A DNA stretch of 64,000 bases. Origin: a virus. Made by a program: the position numbers and the translations under genes. Every line of letters starts with the position of its first letter. Within the stretch, counting starts at the first letter, position 1. Where the stretch lies: positions 1-64,000 of the IMG/VR virus record IMGVR_UViG_3300042879_004946, one strand, 5' to 3'. Of this stretch, positions 1 to 36,881 are shown piece by piece. A model generated the notes under the pieces. It did no database searches. It saw only the letters and a program-made list of their open reading frames with translations, and was not told the origin of the DNA.

Positions 1-311
1 ACTTTACCGATAGAGGTTGTATTTTTGGCATCACCAAATTTAGTAATACCTTTGATGTAGTCTAAAACTTGATAACCATTTTTAGTTAAAAAATCGGTAA
101 CTTCTTTTTCAACGTTAGAAACAGGGCCAGATTTTTCTTTTTTTCCTAATGGTATGTAAATACGATAATAATTTCTATCGTGTTCAAATTCATCACCTAA
201 TTTTTTAAAAATATCTACATATCTTTCACGATTAAAGTTTTTAACGTAATTTCTAAATTGGGATGGTTTTAAAGCCTCTTGTAACAGAATTTTATGAATT
301 AATTTTTTCAT
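1..311 (-). CDS. Partial hypothetical protein with virion-protein-type leader (MKKLIHKILLQE...), runs off the window start
   Basis: Manual translation from ATG at 311 on the minus strand: MKKLIHKILLQEALKPSQFRNYVKNF...; ATATTTAT motif just upstream. Confidence 0.7.
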   Translation of the reverse strand, partial: MKKLIHKILLQEALKPSQFRNYVKNFNRERYVDIFKKLGDEFEHDRNYYRIYIPLGKKEKSGPVSNVEKEVTDFLTKNGYQVLDYIKGITKFGDAKNTTSIGK

Positions 312-1334: not shown

Positions 1335-1568
1335 AAATTTCAATCCTTTCGTTTATGGGTCATCTCCAGCTACCGCTGGATTAAGTTATCTAGCATCTCC
1401 GTTGTAAATACCTTTCGTTTATGGGTCATCTCCAGCACAAACAATTAACCATTGAGGTTATCTCTAGTTGTAAATACCTTTCGTTTATGGGTCATCTCCA
1501 GCCGCTTTATTCACGAATGTTACGTTGTTTCTGTTGTAAATACCTTTCGTTTATGGGTCATCTCCAGC
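1335..1568. CRISPR. CRISPR-like mini-array 1: three identical 36-nt repeats, one degenerate terminal repeat, three 30-nt spacers; no cas genes in the window
   Basis: GTTGTAAATACCTTTCGTTTATGGGTCATCTCCAGC at 1401-1436, 1467-1502, 1533-1568; degenerate copy 1335-1370 (last 26 nt identical); unique 30-nt spacers 1371-1400, 1437-1466, 1503-1532; repeat ends can base-pair. Confidence 0.85.
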
Positions 1569-1891
1569 ATACGCACGCATAAGTCTTTGATTTCTTGTTC
1601 ATTAAGACGAAATTCTTGATTTAATTTTCTCCAAATTTTATCATAATCAACTAATAAATAAGGTTTTTTTTTATCTCTATCCGCATCATCCACCATTAAA
1701 GTAACCCCGCTTTTATCCTTATATAACATTAAACCTGGATTATTTTCCGAAGGAACCACCTTTAAATTGGACATAATTTCATAAAGAAATTCTTCAGCGG
1801 GGGAAAATTGTTTAGTATTACCAACCAATTCTTCAGCCCAATCAAAATCATCAAATTCTTCTTTTAATATTTTTCTTATAAGGTTTTTCAT
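1520..1891 (-). CDS. Array-linked small protein, paralog A (123 aa); C-terminus encoded by the repeat plus first spacer
   Basis: ORF with MKNLIRKILKEE leader; nearly identical to 1952-2329 and 36099-36473. Confidence 0.85.
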   Translation of the reverse strand: MKNLIRKILKEEFDDFDWAEELVGNTKQFSPAEEFLYEIMSNLKVVPSENNPGLMLYKDKSGVTLMVDDADRDKKKPYLLVDYDKIWRKLNQEFRLNEQEIKDLCVRMLEMTHKRKVFTTETT

Positions 1892-1904
1892 ATTTTATAA
1901 ATAT

Positions 1905-2006
1905 CAGGTTAACATTTTTCGTTTATGGGTCATCTCCAGCTCAAATCAACTTCAATCAAAGTCCGATTCAGCTGTCAATACCTTTCGTTTATGGGTCATT
2001 TCCAGC
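1905..2006. CRISPR. CRISPR-like mini-array 2: repeat, 30-nt spacer, degenerate repeat
   Basis: GCTGTCAATACCTTTCGTTTATGGGTCATTTCCAGC 1971-2006; spacer 1941-1970; degenerate repeat 1905-1940. Confidence 0.8.
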
Positions 2007-2329
2007 ATACGCACGCATAAATTACTGATTTCTTGTCCATTAAGGCCAAATTCTTGACGTAATTTTAACCAAATTTGACGATAATCAACCCATAAATAAG
2101 GATTTTTTTCATCACTATCCACACTATCCGCCATTAAAGTAAGCCCGCTTTTATCCTTATATAACATTAAACCTGGATAATTTTTTGAAGGAACCGCCTT
2201 TAAGTTTGACATGATTTCATACAAAAATTCTTCAGCGGGTGAAAATTGTTTGGTGTTACCAACCAATTCTTCTGCCCAACCAAAATCATCAAATTCTTCT
2301 TTTAATATTTTTCTTATAAGGTTTTTCAT
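1952..2329 (-). CDS. Array-linked small protein, paralog B (125 aa)
   Basis: Near-identical paralog; ends LEMTHKRKVLT-AESDFD, with the tail derived from the spacer. Confidence 0.85.
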   Translation of the reverse strand: MKNLIRKILKEEFDDFGWAEELVGNTKQFSPAEEFLYEIMSNLKAVPSKNYPGLMLYKDKSGLTLMADSVDSDEKNPYLWVDYRQIWLKLRQEFGLNGQEISNLCVRMLEMTHKRKVLTAESDFD

Positions 2330-2697: not shown

Positions 2698-3821
2698 TAT
2701 CTGTAGTATATTCTTTGTTTGTTATAATCAATAATAGGGTTTCTATCAGCATCGTAAATACTTTTAAAAATATCAACCGATTCTGGTGATTCTATAGGTA
2801 GTGCTGCTTTTAAAGCTTTAGTGAATAAAGTGTTTGAATATTGTAATTGTGCGTCATCACAACCGTGCACTTGGCAATAATTTGCCTCACATAATTCCGA
2901 TATTACCATACCAGTATAAAACCCATGTAAATCATACGGGACCACAAATCTATCGGCATTACACCAAACAGCAACAATTGGTTTTGTTTTTAAAATATTT
3001 AAAAAGTCATAACCAACGGAGTAGTGTTTATATTTAACATATTGACCGCTACTATTTAATTCCACACCTTCAACACCCCCAATCATACTTAACATTAAAC
3101 CACTTGGTGATCCATGACCCATCAATATAATTCTTCTGTGATTTTTCATGGTTTCTTTTAAATTATACATATCATCTTTAGTTGTTAAAACTGTCGCATT
3201 TAAACCAGCATAAGACGGTTTTAAAAAATCAGTTGTTCTATCGTCTGGATGTATAATTAATGTATCACCTTTTTTAACGTTTCTAGTCAACAGTTTCTCT
3301 AACTGTTCTGGTGTATAAGATTTAGTGTCTATTATGTTATCATTTTTAAAGTAACTACCATAATTACCATAATTACCATAACCACCTAAAACATCTGATT
3401 TACGGCTTTTATCTGTTTTTTTATCGATAAAAAATTTAATATAAAAACATAAATCCTCAACGGCCTCTAAAGTGTATAATTTAATATCCCTAGGTGATGC
3501 CAAAATTTTATTATACAAGTCATTAGGTATGTTGGTATATTCTAATGCTTTTTGAGCAACACGACCATTAATAAGGTTAAAGTTTTTATGGAAACATTCG
3601 GCTGCCGCAATAACCGCTTCCAAGACATCAACATCAAAACTACCTAATTCATAAGCTTCTGTAACCATCCATTCCAAATATTTATTACTACCGGAAGGAT
3701 CTGCCATTGATAAATCTCTTATAGCAACTTCTGGGACATTATATTTAGAATATTTTTTTATAATGTCCTGTAAACGACCTTCATTTAATATTGTTTCTAA
3801 AATAATATGTTTAAGATTCAT
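2697..3821 (-). CDS. Leader-bearing protein with possible C-terminal clan-CD (caspase/gingipain/CHAT-like) His-Cys domain
   Basis: N-terminus MNLKHIILETILNE; ILMGHGSP and VAVWCNA motifs each follow a hydrophobic strand. Confidence 0.5.
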   Translation of the reverse strand: MNLKHIILETILNEGRLQDIIKKYSKYNVPEVAIRDLSMADPSGSNKYLEWMVTEAYELGSFDVDVLEAVIAAAECFHKNFNLINGRVAQKALEYTNIPNDLYNKILASPRDIKLYTLEAVEDLCFYIKFFIDKKTDKSRKSDVLGGYGNYGNYGSYFKNDNIIDTKSYTPEQLEKLLTRNVKKGDTLIIHPDDRTTDFLKPSYAGLNATVLTTKDDMYNLKETMKNHRRIILMGHGSPSGLMLSMIGGVEGVELNSSGQYVKYKHYSVGYDFLNILKTKPIVAVWCNADRFVVPYDLHGFYTGMVISELCEANYCQVHGCDDAQLQYSNTLFTKALKAALPIESPESVDIFKSIYDADRNPIIDYNKQRIYYR

Positions 3822-4437
3822 TGTTTATATTTTTTTTAATTTTTAATATATCTTGTAGTTTTTTTATTCTTGATTCCAGTTCATCAACCTCAAGATCCTC
3901 AGAGTTAGAATCTTCTAATTCAGATTCTAAGTCCGTAATTCTTTCTTCTAATTCTTCTATTTTAGATTCTAAACCTTCAACCTCGTCATCTCTAGAATCT
4001 TTACCTTCCTCATAACCGTCATCAAAACCACTGCTACGTCCTTCTTCATAAGCTTCATCACGTGCTTCTCTAATTTCTTGTCTATGATCATCATAATAAA
4101 TGAAATCATCACAACAACCATCACAAGTACAATAGTTATCACGAGCATATTCTTTACCTTCCTCATAAGCTCTATCAAATTGGTTATACAATTCATCTCC
4201 AATATCATCCAAAACAGACTTTTTAAGAATACCGTTATCAGTGATTAATTCAAAAAGATCATCAATATCAACACCATATTCATGTTCGGAACGAAACCAA
4301 TTTTTTTTTATAATTTTTTCAGCTCTATTAATATCTAAATTAGGAACCCATTCATAATCATCGGAGTCATCTTCTTTAATAATTTTTTGAACCAATTTAT
4401 GAATATCTTTTTCGGTTAATTTGATTATTTTTTTCAT
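3811..4437 (-). CDS. Acidic leader-bearing hypothetical protein with C-terminal coiled coil
   Basis: MKKIIKLTEKDIHKLVQKIIKE leader; YEEG repeats; heptad-like LESKIEELEERITDLESEL. Confidence 0.75.
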   Translation of the reverse strand: MKKIIKLTEKDIHKLVQKIIKEDDSDDYEWVPNLDINRAEKIIKKNWFRSEHEYGVDIDDLFELITDNGILKKSVLDDIGDELYNQFDRAYEEGKEYARDNYCTCDGCCDDFIYYDDHRQEIREARDEAYEEGRSSGFDDGYEEGKDSRDDEVEGLESKIEELEERITDLESELEDSNSEDLEVDELESRIKKLQDILKIKKNINNES

Positions 4438-19475: not shown

Positions 19476-22400
19476 TTATATTATAAACCAATTTGATCCA
19501 TCGGTAATAAATGTTATCGATGCGTTCACAACTGTTACGGTTGCCGTAGATGTACCATCTATAGTTTGTCCACCAGATGTGTTTACAATCAAATTAGGGG
19601 CTCCGCCTATTTTTTTAATAGTTACTTTAGCATTACCGTTATTTGGTAAGGTAACATTAAAGGTGCCACCACTTGTGTTACACAATATTATTTGCTCACC
19701 AGTGGTTGCACTACTAATATAATTATTTAATGGTTTCACTATTGAATAAGAACTACCACCACCTAGGGTAGATGAATCTCGGTATTTAACTTCACCACTA
19801 CTTGAATCTCTGACCAATATTTGTGTTAATGCATCATTATTTGCTGGGGTTGAATTTATGTTTAAACTTGAAACATATACAAAATCACTGGATGTTCCGG
19901 AAATACCTTGGCCACCTAAAACAACTGAACGATCACCTGTAACCGTGGAATTTGTGGAGTGTATAAAAGAAGCTATACCTGATACAGTACTACCTGAACC
20001 TGAAGCAAATGAACCGTAACCCAATGCTATGGTGTTAATACCTTGTGAGTGTGAATAATCACCCATACTTAGCGTATTGAGACCTTCAGCGTGTGAACCA
20101 ATACCTAAAGCTTTGGTTACTTCACCTTCGGTGTGTGAATGACTGTTAGATATAATTTGGTCAGCACCAGTTGGCAGTACATTTGAAGGGACACCCACAA
20201 GAGTACCCGAATTAATAAGTGCATCTTGTAATGTTATTATGGTGTTAGTGCCATTCCAATTAACGGAACTAATATTAAGATAACTTAAAGTCACACCATC
20301 TAATAAGATAACCGTATTTGAGAATTCTGTAGTAACGTCCCCATAACTAGTATTTAAAGTTAAAACACCAGCTAAAACAGAATCTAAGGTGTACGCATAT
20401 ATTCCTGTTGCCGTACTTAAACCTTCTGAGTGTGAACCATAACCAAGTGACGAAGTTGTCAACCCTTCCGCGTGTGATCTCTCACCAACTGCGTGTGAAC
20501 CATCACCTTCTGCGTGTGAATAATTACCAGCTGTTTTACTGCCTCTACCTTCTGCGTGTGACCATGAACCTGATACTAGTGTAGCATATCCCTCAGCGTG
20601 TGAATAAGATCCTGATGATATTGCTTCTTGACCTTCAGCGTGTGAATAATCTCCTATTGCTCGAGTGTTATCTCCTTCAGCATGTGAGTACTCTCCTTTT
20701 GCTTGAGCAAGATTTCCTTCAGCATGAGATGCAATTCCTGATGCTATTGATAGATTTCCTTCAGCATGTGAATAATCACCAGCAGCAACCGTAGTATTAC
20801 CAAAAGCAAAACTGGTTATTCCTGTTGCACTGGAACCAAAATTTTGAATTGAATCGTGAATTGTTATAGGAGAACATCCGTGTAAATTTGAAACATAGAT
20901 ATCTGAAATACAATTTGCAGAAGTATTACCTGTGAAAACATAAGATGAAGGTACTGACGCACCAATTTGTTTTGCAATAACAATAAGTGATGGTGAATCG
21001 GGTCTTGTTGGTGTCGTCAACCCACTTAAAGCGGTTAATTGAACATATTGACTATTTGATGAAAAATAAAATTGAACATAATCATTTGCCTCTAGTTCAA
21101 ATATAAGAGAAACAAAGGGTAATTGATAAGTACTATTAGAGACTAATCCTAAAGTTGAAGAACTTCTAGTTACAGGATTTCCGTTTACTTCCGCCCAAAT
21201 AGTGACCAAAGCATCGGTTCCCTGAGTTTTTTCTATTTGAGGAGAATAACCAATTTCATAAACACCTTTATTAAAAACTTTAATTTTACTGTTATCGACT
21301 ATGGTAATACCGTTACTTAATTCCGTTTGGTTATAAGTCCAAACTGTTGATGTATTTGCTGCAGTAACTGGAATGTTTCCTGTATTTGAAAAACTTCCGT
21401 AATAATTTAAAGCGTATCCACTTAAAGAAGTTGTAAACCCTGGTATTGATAGGGAACCGTTTTGACGATTAAGAGTTAATATACCCGTTGTGTTATTATA
21501 CGTACCGCCAGTCACATAATAATCAGTTCCTGTACTGCCAGAACCACCTGTTGATACAGCCCATCTTGCATTACCAGAAGCATCAGAAGTTAAAACATAA
21601 CCATTGGTTGCCCCAGAAGTCATCTGGAAGTTAGTGGTTATAATTTTTGTTGTTGCTGTTAATGTGGTGAATAAAGAACTACCGTCTGCATTTAACCACG
21701 CTGTCTGTGTTCCTGCATTATTTTCTATAATAATATTTTTATCCGTATCACTACCAGTACCACCTCTAAACTGAACACCATCTAAAGTAGAGTTTGTTAC
21801 AATTTCTGGGTTTGTTGAATTATTATACGCTTGTTGAAGTGTTGTTGTTGATAGGCCACCAGTACCCCCTAAAAGTTCACCAAATTTAGATACCGGGGTA
21901 AATACTGCATAACTACTATTTGTTAACGGTTGACCGTCTGCAACAATATCATTTCTCACTGAAATAATACCGATTAAGATGCCAGTATTTTTGGCATTTG
22001 GGTAAACAACGAATGATTCGGTTTGTATACCAGCTACCGCCTCCGTTAGACTACCATAATTTGTTTGACCATAAAGAATGTTTAAAACACCTGTTGGGTA
22101 TAAATACACTCTTTGATTACTAGCGTTATCACTATTAGCAGCACCCATGCTAGTTATAGCACCGTTAACGTCATATTTTGTTGGGTCGATTACCGATACT
22201 GACGAACTTGTACCACCTGTTTGTGTTCTATAAAAAAATGATGCAGGTACTTTTGCTGATATACCTACACTATTTGGGTTTAATTCATTTGTAACCCAAC
22301 CAATTCCATTACCCCAAAGAGTTCCTGATGAAATGTTAATATTTAAATTAGAACCATTTGGTGACACTAAAACACCTTCATTTATTAATTTTATTGGTGA

Positions 22401-26566: not shown

Positions 26567-28384
26567 ATGGTAGATTTAACTAGATTAAAAAGTAAAACAA
26601 CATTAGAAAAGTTAAAAAACTATGTAGGTGAAAATGAACACATTTTAAAAATGAAAAAAAAATTCGAAAATGAAGGTTTTTTCATTTTAACACCAAGTCA
26701 AATATCTTACATAGAAGAAAATTATAATTTTTCACCCATAGAATTCAATAAAATTGTTGAGATAACCGCTTATTTTGGTGAACAATTAAAAGAAAAATTT
26801 GCTTTAAAAAACGTACCTGAAAAAGTTTTTATTGAAAAACTTTTAAGTGATGGTGAAAAATCTTATCACGTCAAAGGCAAACTTTATAAAAACCAAAAAG
26901 AAAGTGTATATTATCATATACCAAAAACACAATTACTAACAGATTTATTTTTTGAATCATATGAAGATTTAGAAGTTGATTTTGAATCTGTTAATAAAGT
27001 AAATAAAAAAAATAGAAACTTATTTCCACACCAAGAAACTGCAATAAAATTTTTATTAAAAAGAGACAAATCTATTTTATCTGACGATATGGGTTTGGGA
27101 AAAACGAAATCGGCAATCGCTGCAGCTTTGTTATCTGGTGCTGAAAAAATATTAGTTGTTTGCCCTGCAAACGCAAAAATTAACTGGTTTCGTGAAATTA
27201 CTGAATATTTGGATGAAGAAATGGTCACCATAGTTAAAAGTGGATATTGGCAACCAAAAGTTTTTACCATTATTAATTACGATATTTTAAATCGTTTTCA
27301 CGAAATTCAAGATAAAAGAAAAAAAGAAGAGACCAAAAGTTACATTAATGAAGAAAAATTTGATTTAATGATTGTTGACGAGGCTCATATGATAAAAAAT
27401 AAAGATAGCATTCGTGGTAAGATTGTTGCACAAATCACTGAAAATATTCCTAAAGTTTGGTTATTAACAGGAACGCCGATATCAAATAGACCAATGGATT
27501 ACTACAATCTATTAAAGATTTGTAAAGTTCCAGTAACTGATAATTTTCAACATTTCGCATATCGTTATTGTGCTGCGAAATCATTTAATAAAAAATTAGC
27601 ATCAGGTAAAATTAAAAGAATTTGGTTGACCGATGGTGCTTCTAATTTAGAAGAGCTACATCAAAAAACTAAAAATTATATTCTTCGTAGAAAAAAAGAA
27701 GACCATTTAGATTTACCACCTAAAATTATTTCACCTTTTTATTTAGAGTTAGAAAATAGAAAAGGTTACGAAAGTGCTTTTGAAGAATACGTTACTTGGT
27801 TAAAATTAGAAGGTAGAAGATTAGGACCAGCAAGACAAATGGTGGAAATGGTGGTTTTACGAAAATTTATTTCACAGGAAAAAATTCCACACACTATTGA
27901 CATGGTGCAAAACTTTTTAGAACAATCAGAAACCAAAAAAGTTATTATATTTACTGTTTTCACTGAAAGTTTAAAAAAATTAAAAGACGAACTTGGTGAC
28001 ATTGCGGTTTGTCACAACGGTGAAATGTCGGATAAGGAAAAACAAAAAAGTATTGATAAATTCCAAAACGATCCAAAAGTTAGGGTTTTTATTGGTAATA
28101 TTGTTTCAGCTGGTTCCGCAATCACATTAACTGCGTCAGATACAACTTTGTTTCATGATATCGATTTTGTTCCTGCAAACCACCAACAAGCTGAGGATAG
28201 ATCCTACCGTATCGGCCAAGACAAAACGGTTAACATATATTACCCCATATTTGAAAATAGCATAGAAGAAAAAATTTACGAAATTCTACAAAAGAAAAAA
28301 GAAATAATATCTAAAGTTATGGGTGAAAAAGTTGATCACATAGATATTGCTGAAGATTTTATTTCAACTTTATTTAAAATATAA
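26567..28384 (+). CDS. SNF2-family helicase/translocase
   Basis: DDMGLGKT, VDEAH, LTGTPISN, QAEDRSYRIGQ. Confidence 0.92.
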   Translation: MVDLTRLKSKTTLEKLKNYVGENEHILKMKKKFENEGFFILTPSQISYIEENYNFSPIEFNKIVEITAYFGEQLKEKFALKNVPEKVFIEKLLSDGEKSYHVKGKLYKNQKESVYYHIPKTQLLTDLFFESYEDLEVDFESVNKVNKKNRNLFPHQETAIKFLLKRDKSILSDDMGLGKTKSAIAAALLSGAEKILVVCPANAKINWFREITEYLDEEMVTIVKSGYWQPKVFTIINYDILNRFHEIQDKRKKEETKSYINEEKFDLMIVDEAHMIKNKDSIRGKIVAQITENIPKVWLLTGTPISNRPMDYYNLLKICKVPVTDNFQHFAYRYCAAKSFNKKLASGKIKRIWLTDGASNLEELHQKTKNYILRRKKEDHLDLPPKIISPFYLELENRKGYESAFEEYVTWLKLEGRRLGPARQMVEMVVLRKFISQEKIPHTIDMVQNFLEQSETKKVIIFTVFTESLKKLKDELGDIAVCHNGEMSDKEKQKSIDKFQNDPKVRVFIGNIVSAGSAITLTASDTTLFHDIDFVPANHQQAEDRSYRIGQDKTVNIYYPIFENSIEEKIYEILQKKKEIISKVMGEKVDHIDIAEDFISTLFKI

Positions 28385-29564: not shown

Positions 29565-31862
29565 ATGGCACAATTTTTTACTCGCCCAAACATAGAAGAT
29601 AGAACCATGGTACAATACAGTTCAATGGTAATTAATTTATCAGGAACTACGGCAATCGCAAACCCTGGGTATTTAAAAATTAACCAAGGTGCGGCACCAG
29701 GTTTAGTTGCAACATCTTTAGATTTTGATGGTACCGTTGTTTGGGGCCCAGTTAGTGGTTTAAGTTGGTCGATATCAGCTTGCACCTCACCCTTATACGT
29801 TAATAATATTGTTGCATGTCCGTCATCAGCTGGTACCATTGTGGTACAATCTGGAATCTTAACGGTTAACGGGGCTTTACAATTAAACCCAACATTATCA
29901 GGTGGTACCGCTGGTGACCGTCTTTTAGTTATAGATAGTAATGGTTATGTTAAAGTTGGTCAAACAGGTACTTCTATAAGTTCTTTAAGTTATAACAATA
30001 ACAACTTAACCTTAACCTTAAACGATGGTAGTATTTTTACTGCAACCATTAACACAATGACAGGATTAACTATTAATGGCAATTTAACCGTTAGTGGTAA
30101 CACAAGAATTGTTGGTAATACTTCTGTAATTGGTAATTTAAATGTTACTGGTAATACTTCTATTAACGGTTCAGTAAGTGCGACAACTTATTATGGTGAT
30201 GGTTCTAATTTAACAGGTATTCCTGACTACTACGTGACTGGTGGTACTTTTGGTGGTAATGTTTTAACTTTAAATCGCCAAAACGGTTCTGTCACGATTG
30301 CAGGTTTTACCGGTTTTACTGATAATTTTGTAACTGGTGGTACTTATAATTATAGTACCGGAACTTTAACATTAAACAGGCAAAACGGTTCTCTTTCAGT
30401 TTCTGGTTTAAGTTTTACAGGCAACACTTTAGGTACTTGTATTACTGATATATACGTTCAAAATTTATATGGTTGTAGTAATCCTATAACAATAGGGAGT
30501 TCACTTAAAAGTTCTGCAGGTGGCTCTACCGCGGCAGGAACATCAGCTTTTGCTTTCGGTAACAATGTTGCTGCGACAGGTAACTTTTCCATGGCTCAAG
30601 GTAATGGAACATCAACTGCTGGTGGAACATATGCTCATGCAGAAGGTGCTAATACAACCGCTAGTGGGTTAGGTTCTCACGCAGAGGGGTTATCAACAAC
30701 ATCATCAGGTCAATATGCACATGCTGAAGGTAGAGGGACTGTTGCATCAGGAAACTATTCACACGCACAAGGGTTATTTACAAACGCAACAACAGAAGGA
30801 ACTTTTGCATCAGGTTCAGGTTCAACCGCATCGGGAGCAAATTCTTTTATCCATTCAGTTGGATCAACGGTTTCTGGTAATAGGTCAGTTGTTTTAGGTG
30901 GTTTTGGAATAAACGGAACATCAAATGATTTTGTTTATGTCCCAAGTTTAAACATTAACACAACACCAACAAATAATGATTCAAATGCTCAAATTTTATC
31001 AAGAAATTCTAGTACCGGTAATATTGAATATACTAATCTATCTTTATTAACCGCTTATACTGATACTTTTGTAACCGGTTTTACTTATAACAATGCAAAC
31101 AGGTTAACAATAAGTAGAAACGGGAGTCAACCTGATTTAACGGTTAATATTAACAGATTAACTGGATTAACTGTTACAAACGGTTTATCCGCAGATACCT
31201 TAACATTAACCACAATGGCGGTAACTGCAAGTACTAGCACCCAAGCTTTAGTTAGAAATACAACAACTGGTGTTGTTGAAAGTCGACCATTTGGTTTGGA
31301 AAGTATTATTCTTGTAACTTCAGCTTCAACCATACCAATAGCAGGCGTTGGGCCAAGTTTCGATTCGATTAAAGGCATACCACAAGGCCAAGTTATTACG
31401 GGTTATACCACTATATATAGTAACAATGTTTCCCAATCCGGACCAACAGTAAACACTAACTTTGGTACATATGATAATACAACAGGTTTATTTACGACAA
31501 ATGTGAATGCGACTTTAATGTTAAACGCATATATACATTTAAAACCAGACACTAGCACATCAACCGCGTGGTCACTTTCGGGGACTGGTGAATTTGGTAT
31601 TGGTATTTGTCCTAATAACGCAACTGATATTTATGTTGGTGATTATCAAACAATAATCCCTGACCCTGATACGGCACAATATGTTTATGAATTGTATGGA
31701 GCAAACGCACCAAGAACAAATCAAATAGATATCAGTATTAGCACTGTAATTTACGCAGCTTCTAATTCTAGTTTTAGAGTTAAAGTTTTAAATAAAACTG
31801 ATAGAAATTATACTGGTGTTCAAGGTGACGGTATCAGATTTTCAATAACAAGAATAATGTAA
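29565..31862 (+). CDS. Tail fibre-like protein, paralog 2
   Basis: VTGGT..LTLNRQNG and (S/A)HAEG repeats shared with 19476-24926. Confidence 0.7.
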   Translation: MAQFFTRPNIEDRTMVQYSSMVINLSGTTAIANPGYLKINQGAAPGLVATSLDFDGTVVWGPVSGLSWSISACTSPLYVNNIVACPSSAGTIVVQSGILTVNGALQLNPTLSGGTAGDRLLVIDSNGYVKVGQTGTSISSLSYNNNNLTLTLNDGSIFTATINTMTGLTINGNLTVSGNTRIVGNTSVIGNLNVTGNTSINGSVSATTYYGDGSNLTGIPDYYVTGGTFGGNVLTLNRQNGSVTIAGFTGFTDNFVTGGTYNYSTGTLTLNRQNGSLSVSGLSFTGNTLGTCITDIYVQNLYGCSNPITIGSSLKSSAGGSTAAGTSAFAFGNNVAATGNFSMAQGNGTSTAGGTYAHAEGANTTASGLGSHAEGLSTTSSGQYAHAEGRGTVASGNYSHAQGLFTNATTEGTFASGSGSTASGANSFIHSVGSTVSGNRSVVLGGFGINGTSNDFVYVPSLNINTTPTNNDSNAQILSRNSSTGNIEYTNLSLLTAYTDTFVTGFTYNNANRLTISRNGSQPDLTVNINRLTGLTVTNGLSADTLTLTTMAVTASTSTQALVRNTTTGVVESRPFGLESIILVTSASTIPIAGVGPSFDSIKGIPQGQVITGYTTIYSNNVSQSGPTVNTNFGTYDNTTGLFTTNVNATLMLNAYIHLKPDTSTSTAWSLSGTGEFGIGICPNNATDIYVGDYQTIIPDPDTAQYVYELYGANAPRTNQIDISISTVIYAASNSSFRVKVLNKTDRNYTGVQGDGIRFSITRIM

Positions 31863-31877
31863 AAAATATAATATAAA

Positions 31878-33911
31878 ATGTCATTAAATTTAAGAAGTTC
31901 AGGAACCCCTTTAACACAACCACAATTAGATAGTAATTTTACTTTTCTTTTTGGTAGAGATATTACTGGGACAACTGTATCTGGAAATACGGTTTTTTTA
32001 AATAAACAAAATGGTACAAGTTTTAGTTTTAATATACCTTCTTTTACAGGAAACACTTCAGCTTCTTGTATAAATGATTTATATGTTAGTAACATTCACG
32101 GATGTTCACCAATAACAATTCATGATTCTATTCAAAGTGTTGGTTCTTTCGCAAATGGTTTTCGTAGTTTTGCTTTTGGTGATGATGATAATACAGCTAG
32201 TGGTGATTTTTCTTTTGCAATTGGTGAGACTACAATAGCAAGTGGTAATTCTTCACACGCGGAAGGTGTAAGTACAACAGCAATTGGTTATGGTTCTCAT
32301 ACAGAAGGCAATAGCACAGAAGCTATTGGTAATTATTCACACGCGGAAGGTGAAGGTACAACATCGAATGGCATATCTTCACACGCGGAAGGTTTTACTA
32401 CAACAGCAACTGGTGATTATTCACATGCGGAAGGATCGACAACACTAACCACTGGTGCTTATTCTCACGCAGAGGGTAGGGGTACTAAAACAGAAGGTGA
32501 TTATTCACATGCAGAAGGTGAAAATACGATAGCAACCGGTGAAAGATCACACGCGGAAGGTCGTGATACGCGGTCACTTGGTTGGTGGTCACACGCAGAA
32601 GGATCTGGGTCTTATACTGGTGTATATGGTTATACAGTCACAAACACAACAAACGGTGTAATCACGTTAGATTCTACCTATGGTAATGTTGTGTCACAGT
32701 TTACCGGTATGACTTATGTTATGACTAACGCTTCAGGGATGTATGGTACAATAAGTGGGACACCGACTTTTGATGGTACTAATACAATAGTATATATAAA
32801 TGAAACTGATGGTGGAGAAACGATAATAGCACCAATGGAAAATCCACAAGCTGAATCGGCCGACCAAATATTAGGCGGTTATTATTCACATGCGGAAGGT
32901 CAAGGCGCAATAGCACGTGGTGACTATTCACATGCGGAAGGAGGGCTTCAATCTTTTTCATCCCCAGGAGGTGGTACAATATTTACAAGAACAGTTGCCA
33001 ATGGATCTTATTCACACGCAGAAGGTATTGCAACTAAAGCTTTAGGTAATAGTTCACATTCACAAGGTATTTTAACAGAGGCTATTGGTACCTATTCATT
33101 TGCGTCAGGAAGTAATTCAAAAGCTTATGGGTTCACTTCCTTCATACACTCAACTGATTCTATCTTAACTAGTGGTGCAACAAATTCGGTTTTATTGGGC
33201 GGTCAAAACATCACGGGTTCATCAAGTAATACTGTTTATGTTCCGAATTTAAATATTAATTACCAACCAAACACACATACAGGTACAACTTCGCAAGTTT
33301 TGGTTAGAGACAGTGTTACAGGTAATGTTGAAGTTAAAAATATTGGAAATGTTTATTATTGTGCTTTATTTATAAATTCTAGTAGTCAACCACCTGCAGG
33401 TATTATACCGTCGGTAACAATAGCTAATGGTGGTATCGCTGATAGAGGTAAAAGAATTACTGGTTTTACACAGATAGTATCAAATGGTGTTGTCTCTAAT
33501 TCAACGGGAGTAGGTAATTATGTGACATCACCACCAAGTTGTAGTTTCGGTACTTTTAATAATAATAGTGGAGTTTTTAGTATAACACAAGCAGGTCTTT
33601 ATCTTATTGAAGGATCGATACATCTTAAATCGGATAATGATTCTTCTGTTTATTGGCAATCAGTTTCGGCAGGTACTTTTGGTTTAGGTATTCACCCGGC
33701 AAATGATACTGATATTTATGCAGGAAATTATATGGCAGTATTACCTAATGTACAATCAGAAATTGATGTAACAGTAAGTACTTTAATATATGCTGACGGT
33801 ATAAATGATTTTGTCTCTCTAAAACATTTAAATTGGACTAATAGAAGTTATAACGGTACAGTTTACACTAGTAGTGATGGCATCAGGTTTTCAATAACAA
33901 AAGTGTATTAA
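31878..33911 (+). CDS. Tail fibre-like protein, paralog 3
   Basis: About 12 SHAEG-type repeats; FTGNTSASC..LYVSN.HGCSPIT module; C-terminal domain similar to 29565-31862 (DGIRFSIT). Confidence 0.7.
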   Translation: MSLNLRSSGTPLTQPQLDSNFTFLFGRDITGTTVSGNTVFLNKQNGTSFSFNIPSFTGNTSASCINDLYVSNIHGCSPITIHDSIQSVGSFANGFRSFAFGDDDNTASGDFSFAIGETTIASGNSSHAEGVSTTAIGYGSHTEGNSTEAIGNYSHAEGEGTTSNGISSHAEGFTTTATGDYSHAEGSTTLTTGAYSHAEGRGTKTEGDYSHAEGENTIATGERSHAEGRDTRSLGWWSHAEGSGSYTGVYGYTVTNTTNGVITLDSTYGNVVSQFTGMTYVMTNASGMYGTISGTPTFDGTNTIVYINETDGGETIIAPMENPQAESADQILGGYYSHAEGQGAIARGDYSHAEGGLQSFSSPGGGTIFTRTVANGSYSHAEGIATKALGNSSHSQGILTEAIGTYSFASGSNSKAYGFTSFIHSTDSILTSGATNSVLLGGQNITGSSSNTVYVPNLNINYQPNTHTGTTSQVLVRDSVTGNVEVKNIGNVYYCALFINSSSQPPAGIIPSVTIANGGIADRGKRITGFTQIVSNGVVSNSTGVGNYVTSPPSCSFGTFNNNSGVFSITQAGLYLIEGSIHLKSDNDSSVYWQSVSAGTFGLGIHPANDTDIYAGNYMAVLPNVQSEIDVTVSTLIYADGINDFVSLKHLNWTNRSYNGTVYTSSDGIRFSITKVY

Positions 33912-36098: not shown

Positions 36099-36473
36099 AT
36101 GAAAAATCTTATAAGAAAAATATTAAGGGAAGAGTTTGATGATTTTGATTGGGCAGAAGAATTGGTTGGTAACACCAAACAATTTTCACCCGCTGAAGAA
36201 TTTTTGTATGAAATTATGTCCAATTTAAAGGCGGTTCCTTCGGAAAAAAATCCAGGTTGGATGTTATATAAGGATAAAAGCGGGGTTACTTTAATGGCGG
36301 ATAGTGTGGATAGAGATAAAAAAGATCCTTATTTATGGGTTGATTATGATGAAATTTGGTTAAAATTACGTCAAAAATTTGGTCTTAACAATCAGGAAAC
36401 CAAAGACTTATGCGTGCGTATGCTGGAGATGACCCATAAACGAAAGGTATTGACAGCAGCCTTCATCGGCTAA
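36099..36473 (+). CDS. Array-linked small protein, paralog C (124 aa from ATG 36099)
   Basis: Near-identical to paralogs A and B; ends LEMTHKRKVLT-AAFIG. Confidence 0.85.
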   Translation: MKNLIRKILREEFDDFDWAEELVGNTKQFSPAEEFLYEIMSNLKAVPSEKNPGWMLYKDKSGVTLMADSVDRDKKDPYLWVDYDEIWLKLRQKFGLNNQETKDLCVRMLEMTHKRKVLTAAFIG

Positions 36474-36523
36474 ACCCTTCGTACAAAGCTGGAGATGACC
36501 CATAAACGAAAGGTATTGACCTG
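36422..36523. CRISPR. CRISPR-like mini-array 3: repeat, 30-nt spacer, degenerate repeat
   Basis: GCTGGAGATGACCCATAAACGAAAGGTATTGACAGC 36422-36457; spacer 36458-36487; repeat 36488-36523 ending GACCTG; reverse complement of the array 1/2 repeat. Confidence 0.8.
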
Positions 36524-36536: not shown

Positions 36537-36881
36537 ATGAAAAATCTTATAAAAAAAATATTAAAAGAAGAAATCGCCACCAGCAAGAGTTTTGAAGACT
36601 TTGCTGAAAAAAGATTTAAAGGTGCGGAAAAAATCACCAATAATGCAAAAGAAAAAGGTGGTCCAGCAATGTTAACCTATCACCATTTTAGAGTTAAATT
36701 ACCTTACTATAAAAAAGCAATGGAAGGTAAATTTGATTTGGAAGAATCAAAAAAAGAATTTAAAAAATATCTAGATGAATTATGTGACTTATCTGAAAAC
36801 GTTGAAATGGGACAAGTAGAATTTCAAAAATTAGTTGGTCTTATAGAAGTTTTAGGTGAACTCATAATCAAACAAAAGTAA
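36537..36881 (+). CDS. Leader-bearing hypothetical protein
   Basis: MKNLIKKILKEE leader near-identical to the array-linked paralogs; the rest is unrelated. Confidence 0.8.
   Translation: MKNLIKKILKEEIATSKSFEDFAEKRFKGAEKITNNAKEKGGPAMLTYHHFRVKLPYYKKAMEGKFDLEESKKEFKKYLDELCDLSENVEMGQVEFQKLVGLIEVLGELIIKQK

Follow-up and report, generated by a model that had tools for sequence, protein, structure and literature searches.

Arrays fused to a multi-copy phage gene

The viral record IMGVR_UViG_3300042879_004946 contains, in its first 64,000 nucleotides (nt), three arrays of the CRISPR type, and in each of them the first repeat is at the same time the coding 3' end of a phage gene. The 64-kb stretch that we analyzed (positions 1 to 64,000; hereafter, the window) is the beginning of a record of 108,457 bp, which we refer to as G000. 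CheckV estimates the record to be about 33% complete, suggesting that the whole phage, a giant lake phage, measures about 320 kb. A relative of 317,983 bp (G001, the 318-kb relative) is 96% complete. The G+C content of the phage is 30.6%, and a megablast search with the first 5 kb against GenBank phages found no relative.

Two of the arrays lie close together on the minus strand. Array 1 (1335-1568) consists of four repeats, at 1533-1568, 1467-1502, 1401-1436 and, as a degenerate terminal copy, 1335-1370, with three spacers of exactly 30 nt each between them (1503-1532, the newest; 1437-1466; and 1371-1400, the oldest). It is fused to paralog A of the array-bearing gene (1520-1891, minus strand; 123 amino acids, aa), whose last 12 codons are repeat 1 and whose tail TETT and stop codon come from spacer 1. 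Array 2 (1905-2006) has a single spacer (1941-1970) between a repeat (1971-2006) and a degenerate terminal repeat (1905-1940), and its repeat 1 forms the last 12 codons of paralog B (1952-2329, minus strand; 125 aa). Array 3 is found on the plus strand (36422-36523; repeat 36422-36457, spacer 36458-36487, terminal repeat 36488-36523), with its first repeat as the last 12 codons of paralog C (36099-36473, plus strand; 124 aa from the ATG at 36099). The terminal repeat of array 3 closes with ..ACC TGA and continues into the start region of the next gene.

Read in the sense of the gene, the 36-nt repeat is GCTGGAGATGACCCATAAACGAAAGGTATTTACAAC. The gene-proximal copy is in frame at all three loci and encodes ..M-LEMTHKRKV(L/F)T, and the adjoining spacer provides the tail and stop of the open reading frame (ORF), resulting in the C-termini ..MLEMTHKRKVFTTETT (1520-1891, minus), ..VLTAESDFD (1952-2329, minus) and ..VLTAAFIG (36099-36473, plus). 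A 28-nt core of the repeat occurs eight times in the window, and zero times in 100 shuffles. Two further cassettes are located past the window in the same record (72471-72572; 81061-81226), bringing the record to five loci and eight spacers in total (three loci and five spacers in the window), with one to three spacers per array, all unique and 29-30 nt long. The initial annotation of the window had reported 36-nt repeats with exactly 30-nt spacers at three loci, a gene-proximal repeat inside an ORF of about 124 aa that takes its tail and stop from the next spacer, and a degenerate repeat that is always gene-distal. All repeat and spacer positions were exactly as it gave them, and its overall observation, CRISPR-like arrays with a coding first repeat, is confirmed.

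The fusion of gene and array is a property of a whole family. A protein search identified 149 homologues (54-99% identity), all in metagenome or viral contigs. All 149 end with LE.THKRKV.. followed by an unrelated, variable tail; in several, the reading frame continues across two or three repeats. Among 1.84 billion representative proteins, a profile search detected 144 clusters with the domain. When we searched nucleotide patterns instead, a pair of repeats matched 17 stretches in the viral contig collection, and three repeats matched only 14 stretches in 241 million metagenome records. Pooling all searches, we obtained 33 distinct arrays of two to five repeats each. An ORF of the family runs into the first repeat in 33/33, and none of these arrays is near cas genes. 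They contain 67 unique spacers of 28-32 nt, most of them (51/67) of 30 nt. Distant homologues (28-34% identity) possess other C-terminal motifs (WLGEHYNLRGVT, WLDEVYGITGLT and WLEETFKLRGYT) and a correspondingly different 36-nt repeat, still in gene-fused arrays with a period of 65-66 nt. The family members that seemed to have no array carry one spacer and a decayed terminal repeat. The array-bearing gene is found in 5-11 copies per genome.

Comparison of syntenic arrays in related phage stretches indicates that spacers are added beside the gene, and that they turn over quickly. In L020, whose array is syntenic with array 2 of the window, spacer 1941-1970 is retained at the distal end, and one additional spacer is present on the side of the gene. 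Similarly, the spacers that L014 shares with L010, L013 and L022 are gene-distal, and the extra ones are gene-proximal. L017 has both flanks of the 72-kb locus in common with the record, and none of its spacers. Locus-specific variants of the repeat (e.g., GGTT for GACC at 72 kb) are common to the copies within one array, as expected if the first repeat is duplicated. New spacers come in on the side of the gene, which bears out the view that the gene body occupies the position of a leader. Direct repeats with near-constant unique spacers, a polarised gain with a degenerate end, and the existence of protospacers (see below) are all features of CRISPR arrays in general; these are genuine CRISPR-type arrays, not chance repeats. 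The provision of an in-frame stop by every spacer does not generalise: stops were found in the gene frame of 12/35 spacers, and were no commoner there than in the remaining two (10/35 and 16/35).

A G+C-rich hairpin flanked by runs of A and T, read from the sequence, is located directly behind array 1 (1262-1296), between the array and a peptidase-like gene (396-1265). It is likely the terminator of the gene-plus-array transcript, and it could terminate transcription from both sides. A consensus terminator scan did not call this hairpin. Scanning the region 1200-2400 with Rfam gave no CRISPR repeat family, and only weak look-alikes of small RNA (sRNA) terminators, which align to the hairpin.

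The repeat and the protein it encodes

We scanned 185,579 species genomes, requiring two copies of a 10-nt core of the repeat. The scan yielded a Prevotellaceae array with a similar repeat (genome G006), and a gene two kb from this array matches the Cas13b model (E = 3e-189). A second cas13b genome (G157) gave another cas13b-adjacent repeat. The window repeat, in gene sense, is identical to the repeats beside cas13b in G006 and G157 at 22/36 and 23/36 positions, respectively, and 13-14 of its last 16 bases match them; the two verified cas13b-adjacent repeats are identical to each other at only 20/36. By eye, we also counted 23/36 identities with the 36-nt repeat of an array with 30-nt spacers in Flavobacterium columnare (PMC5395568, Table 4); the F. 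columnare array with a 36-bp repeat belongs to type VI-B (PMC8092290). The degenerate repeat of the Prevotellaceae array is downstream in the sense of the CRISPR RNA (crRNA), which is the orientation of the phage arrays, and type VI-B arrays are transcribed from the leader into the array (PMC8092290). The early proposal that the geometry of 36-nt repeats and 30-nt spacers and the repeat sequence fit Bacteroidota type VI-B arrays therefore stands, related repeats having been found next to cas13b.

The phage repeat is predicted to fold as a hairpin that spans the whole repeat, with GCUG pairing CAGC at the ends. Projected onto 34 distinct repeats, this hairpin has 92% of its cells paired, compared with 24-50% in slid controls.

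The codons encoded by the repeat are unusual for the phage. The 11 repeat-coded codons include CTG (0.8% of the phage Leu codons), CGA (4.5% of Arg), AAG (9.6% of Lys), GAG, ACC and TTG, and only 0.04% of the 11-codon windows in the phage's own genes are equally atypical (p about 0.0004). The third-position G+C is 0.55 in these codons, versus 0.20 genome-wide. This rarity indicates that the repeat is held by selection on the nucleic acid, and not only on the protein. Synonymous-site conservation across homologues was uninformative, since the loci had been chosen by their repeat core, which makes that test circular; codon usage takes its place here.

The AlphaFold model of the fused protein is a confident small alpha/beta domain (predicted local distance difference test, pLDDT, of 86); the repeat encodes the end of its last helix and a final strand. 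The repeat-coded residues (..THKRKV..) are basic. Searches with Pfam and PHROGs on three paralogs produced no match. Comparison of the model with solved structures by Foldseek gave nothing at E <= 0.001, and the best Z by VIA-align (4.5) is not meaningful. A search of a protein atlas gave no usable match, and a viral structure library returned as neighbours nothing but uncharacterised proteins from uncultured phages. The array-bearing domain is found as well in proteins of 250-760 aa (P0122, P0124, P0147, P0148 and P0229), always at the very C-terminal end; one of the longer proteins has a cyanophycin-synthase-like N-terminal domain.

Other sequence repetition in the window concerns different proteins. 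Many unrelated small phage ORFs share the N-terminal motif MKNLI(R/K)KILKEE, found in the window at 36537-36881 (plus), 3811-4437 (minus) and 3-311 (minus), and elsewhere in the record at 72643-73062 (minus) and 80275-80751 (plus). The peptide pattern matches more than 592 stretches of the viral contig collection. It may be a shared targeting or packaging leader. Coding repeats with a period of 42 nt (..SHAEG..) form long runs in very large tail-fibre-like ORFs, at 19999-20773 (minus) and 30615-33067 (plus).

Spacer sources and Cas machinery

As to their source, the spacers reproduce ordinary genes from the chromosomes of a single Bacteroidia family. Spacer 1371-1400 is identical (30/30) to a sequence on contig C106 (36% G+C) of the bacterial genome G251, where it falls within an outer-membrane beta-barrel-like ORF adjoining an AraC-type regulator; RNA in the sense of the phage gene would be complementary to the mRNA of this barrel gene. 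The remaining matches of the record are in another bacterial genome, G416. Spacer 36458-36487 matches a gene of the flavin amine-oxidase family (30/30, or 32/32 with flanks), spacer 1941-1970 matches the gene of a PKD protein with a type IX secretion sorting domain (27/30), and the first spacer of the 81-kb locus matches a MazG gene (29/29). The second 81-kb spacer, which is G+C-rich, matches about 27/29 at two places, in a repeated element; this element has at least two copies in G416 (contigs C276 and C218; L250 and L251), with conserved flanks. Two spacers of a related phage (G003) also have exact matches in G416, in a TonB-dependent receptor gene and a DUF2851 gene. G251 and G416 belong to a single Bacteroidia family, of which we examined 27 genomes. 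In all, 5/8 spacers of the record and 3/5 of those in the window were matched to this family; in none of the 27 genomes did we find a match to spacers 1437-1466 and 1503-1532 or to the 72-kb spacer.

This family is likely the host of the phage. In one lake-water run that holds the phage, we found a contig with the 1371-1400 sequence in bacterial flanks (with loose ends at 1371 and 1400), indicating that the source bacterium and the phage co-occur. No RNA run was listed among the sequencing runs containing the window. The spacers have a mean G+C of 0.39, and random 30-mers drawn from the phage average 0.306 (standard deviation of the mean, 0.012). Protospacers do exist, and they are bacterial. 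The idea that the arrays store guides against rival phages was not supported: three window spacers had no exact 24-mer in a collection of 2.9 million viral contigs, array 1 gave no protospacer by blastn against GenBank phages, and neither the 108-kb record nor the 318-kb relative, nor any other phage DNA examined, contains a match to the 67-69 spacers compared. The flanks of seven protospacers showed no consistent motif. Among the in-gene protospacers, 4/6 are oriented so that phage RNA in gene sense pairs with the mRNA, too few to call a bias.

We searched for Cas machinery on both sides of this putative relationship. In phages, neither Cas1 nor Cas13b gave a match, either in the 108-kb record or in four related records, of which one is 96% complete. 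PADLOC gave no cas match among the ten largest ORFs of the window (small ORFs were not exhaustively scanned) or among 39 large ORFs of G001; both sets match only helicase-type defence models. The initial annotation had seen no cas gene in the window, and this agrees with our results for its ten largest ORFs and with the Cas1 and Cas13b search of the record. No inverted or solitary repeat-like copy, as expected of the anti-repeat of a trans-activating crRNA (tracrRNA), was found in G000 or G001. The only defence-type match among the ten largest ORFs of the window is an SNF2/DpdE-like helicase (26567-28384, plus), with E = 4e-40 to defence-system helicase models.

On the bacterial side, Cas1 is present in 7/27 genomes of the spacer-source family. 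The only locus typed by PADLOC, L241, encodes a type II Cas1 (E = 8.5e-108) and Cas2, and directly behind cas2 is an array in which 47-nt repeats alternate with 30-nt spacers. Similar arrays of 47-nt repeats, with spacers of about 30 nt, are present at two other cas1 loci of the family. The end of the host-family repeat (..TTTGAAAGCAAATCACAAC) agrees with the end of the phage repeat at 12/16 bases, counted by eye. When the type II spacers of the host family were compared with the phages, the best match was 24/30 (L239:3191-3220 versus G001:155857-155886), which is either a diverged host spacer against this phage group or chance.

Possible writing and role of the arrays

We lean towards the explanation that these cas-less phage arrays, fused to a conserved gene, are written in trans by the adaptation enzymes of the host, with a decoy as their likeliest role. 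The gene body would stand in for the leader and presumably supply the promoter; new 30-nt spacers enter beside the gene, the repeat being duplicated each time. The spacers would be written by the type II (Cas9-associated) Cas1-Cas2 of the host, by analogy with F. columnare, in which a type VI-B array without cas1 was shown experimentally to be filled by the co-resident type II-C Cas1-Cas2 (PMC8092290). Type II-C and type VI-B repeats share their leader-distal end despite differing lengths (PMC8092290). Writing in trans by the same reaction is the simplest reading. Gene and array would then be transcribed as one RNA.

A decoy function, exerted by the many exposed repeat hairpins, is a serious but tentative possibility. 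As RNA, the repeats would occupy a repeat-binding effector, in the manner of "extraneous crRNA" or of an RNA anti-CRISPR; as DNA, the repeat sites would soak up the host integrase and divert it from the host's own array. The host-derived spacers would be a by-product. In native Cas13b arrays, the first repeat is concealed by a hairpin formed with the leader; RNA made from this repeat otherwise sequesters Cas13b and lowers defence (PMC13187072). At 4/5 loci of the phage, the predicted structure has the first repeat folded upon itself and hardly paired with the 80 nt upstream. With exposed first repeats at 5-11 gene ends, a phage expressing them would flood a repeat-binding effector. A decoy would account for the selection at the nucleotide level, for the copy number, and for the divergence of the repeat in step with the phage clade.

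Several observations weigh against this explanation. Neither the scan of 185,579 species genomes nor 241 million metagenome records revealed a bacterial array with the phage repeat, so that the rule observed for viral mini-arrays, a repeat identical to that of the host, does not hold here. Covariation in the repeat hairpin was no higher than in shuffled controls across the 34 distinct repeats. Cas13b was found in 0/27 genomes of the spacer-source family, some of which are incomplete metagenome bins, using a model that does detect cas13b in G006 and G157. Across Bacteroidia, it was found in 2/401 sampled genomes, one of them the genome that seeded the sample; Cas13b is thus rare, no effector able to read the phage repeat was found, and the proposal that the arrays load a Cas13b of the host is not supported. 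The repeats of the host family are 47 nt long and those of the phage 36 nt, and the copying of 36 nt by a ruler-type integrase is unexplained; the same puzzle of repeat length has been raised for natural type VI-B arrays (PMC8092290). The decoy reading accounts neither for the absence of the effector in the likely host family nor for this difference in length. A pure decoy also has no need of spacers, and one directed at Cas13b should avoid mRNA-complementary protospacers such as the four of six seen here, although the sample is too small.

A variant of writing in trans, which we regard as unlikely, would make the end of the multi-copy gene, in a widespread family of giant lake phages, a landing pad for the host integrase by which pieces of host chromosomes are recorded; the resulting repeat-spacer RNAs would be read by a partner other than Cas13b, to silence host genes or disarm host immunity. 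Candidates for this partner are a host factor and a phage protein not yet recognised, which might be the fused domain. Such an RNA-guided or RNA-decoy system would operate apart from all known Cas effectors. Another possibility is that the stored host-gene spacers are weaponised guides, loaded into an RNA- or DNA-guided host effector (Cas13b where present, or a different one) against host transcripts or the chromosome and helping host shut-off. The mapping of 5/8 record spacers to the chromosome of the putative host family would suit such guides, as would the 4/6 in-gene protospacers that give RNA complementary to mRNA and the lack of any spacer matching the phage itself, and host-targeting spacers have been reported in arrays of huge phages (PMC7162821). 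However, four versus two is also compatible with no strand bias, the targets look arbitrary (MazG, amine oxidase, PKD protein, TonB-dependent receptor), and the family from which the spacers come yielded no Cas13b. Activated Cas13b, moreover, cuts RNA indiscriminately and leads to dormancy (PMC13187072), which would harm the phage, and for use by Cas9 the phage has no anti-repeat or tracrRNA-like copy. We consider this role improbable. Even less credible to us is a new phage-borne system, independent of Cas, in which the repeat RNA is bound by an unrecognised phage protein, possibly the fused one, and the spacers serve it as guides. It would agree with a repeat found in no bacterial array, with no known cas gene having been found in the 96%-complete relative, and with a confidently modelled, basic-ended domain that has no clear match among solved structures and is always the C-terminal module of longer proteins. 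Against it, there is no sign of a fold for RNA binding or nuclease activity, host type II and type VI-B arrays have exactly this spacer length and polarity, and integration would still require an integrase, while no phage Cas1 was found.

The arrays could also have no role as arrays. The end of the gene may by accident mimic a leader-repeat junction for a Bacteroidota Cas1-Cas2, the ectopic spacers being neutral or mildly harmful. Arrays that are short (2-5 repeats) with decaying terminal repeats, spacers drawn from arbitrary host genes, in-frame stops that are not selected and a host family in which the matching effector was not found are all as an accident would leave them. We nevertheless find an accident doubtful: repeat codons so rare for the phage (p about 0.0004) point to selection on the nucleotide sequence itself, the fusion persists in homologues down to 28% identity with the repeats diverging in step, there are 5-11 copies per genome, and every array found with the repeat is on the array-bearing gene. 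Finally, the benefit might lie in the protein, each captured spacer giving it a new C-terminal peptide. A repeat plus a spacer makes 66 nt, or 22 codons, which keeps the frame, and the homologues do have very varied tails (lengths 115-177 aa), some reading through 2-3 repeats. This diversification is weakened by the lack of stop enrichment in the gene frame and by the quarter of the spacers (16/67) that are not 30 nt and break the frame; the tails are furthermore translations of arbitrary host DNA in either orientation. We believe it very unlikely, the least likely of the explanations considered.

Returning to cas-less arrays written in trans, the closest known counterparts are those type VI-B (Cas13b) arrays of Bacteroidota that lack cas1 and cas2 and receive their spacers in trans from type II-C Cas1-Cas2 (Hoikkala et al. 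2021, PMC8092290). The phage arrays have in common with them the 36-nt repeat and 30-nt spacers, the paired GYTG...CARC ends, a 3' half of the repeat (..GAAAGGTAT.TACAAC) nearly identical to that of the verified cas13b-adjacent repeats, a leader side upstream in crRNA sense, a degenerate terminal repeat, and no adjoining adaptation genes. Unlike them, they are borne by a phage and not by a bacterial chromosome, translation of their first repeat gives a protein its C-terminus, their spacers derive from the host chromosome and not from invaders, no leader-repeat hairpin is predicted, and neither the phage nor the likely host family yielded a cas13b. As to type II-C arrays, G000 and G001 have no anti-repeat partner, and the type II repeat of the host family shares only the terminal 16 nt (12/16).

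Short arrays of one to four spacers without acquisition or interference genes are also known from viruses, as viral mini-arrays (PMC11656645) and as the cas-less arrays of huge phages (Al-Shayeb et al. 2020, PMC7162821). Some of the compact cas-less arrays of huge phages carry spacers matching bacteria of the same sample (PMC7162821). Mini-arrays have repeats identical to those of the host, and most of their spacers are directed against related viruses (PMC11656645); in contrast, we found no identical host repeat and no viral target for the arrays described here, which are in addition fused in frame to a multi-copy gene family. The mimicry of a repeat by a phage is shared with RNA anti-CRISPRs (Racrs; PMC10651486) and with the extraneous crRNA of Cas13 (PMC13187072), and as with these, an exposed first repeat would yield a guide-less or harmless RNA occupying the effector. 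Racrs are solitary, non-coding and intergenic; with ORFs masked, the survey that described them recovered all CRISPR types but type VI (PMC10651486). The phage repeat, unlike a Racr, is coding, and real spacers and further repeats follow it. In the literature searched, we found no description of a repeat that doubles as the coding end of a gene, or of a multi-copy gene family as the leader of an array. Cas-less phage CRISPR arrays are thus already known, and what we describe is a variant of them, with the gap of its effector left unexplained. The interpretation first given to the window is supported in part: CRISPR-type arrays, a gene on the leader side and no cas gene found in the phage stand, and guides against rival phages do not.

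If our explanation is true, these phages present CRISPR adaptation in reverse, with host enzymes writing host DNA into a virus at a maintained site inside a coding gene. The phage repeat points to a mimic of type VI or type II repeats, which published surveys would have overlooked by masking ORFs. The spacers are a direct, sequence-based link from uncultured giant phages to their hosts, and the arrays would offer a natural setting in which to study how Cas1-Cas2 selects sites for integration other than at its own leader.

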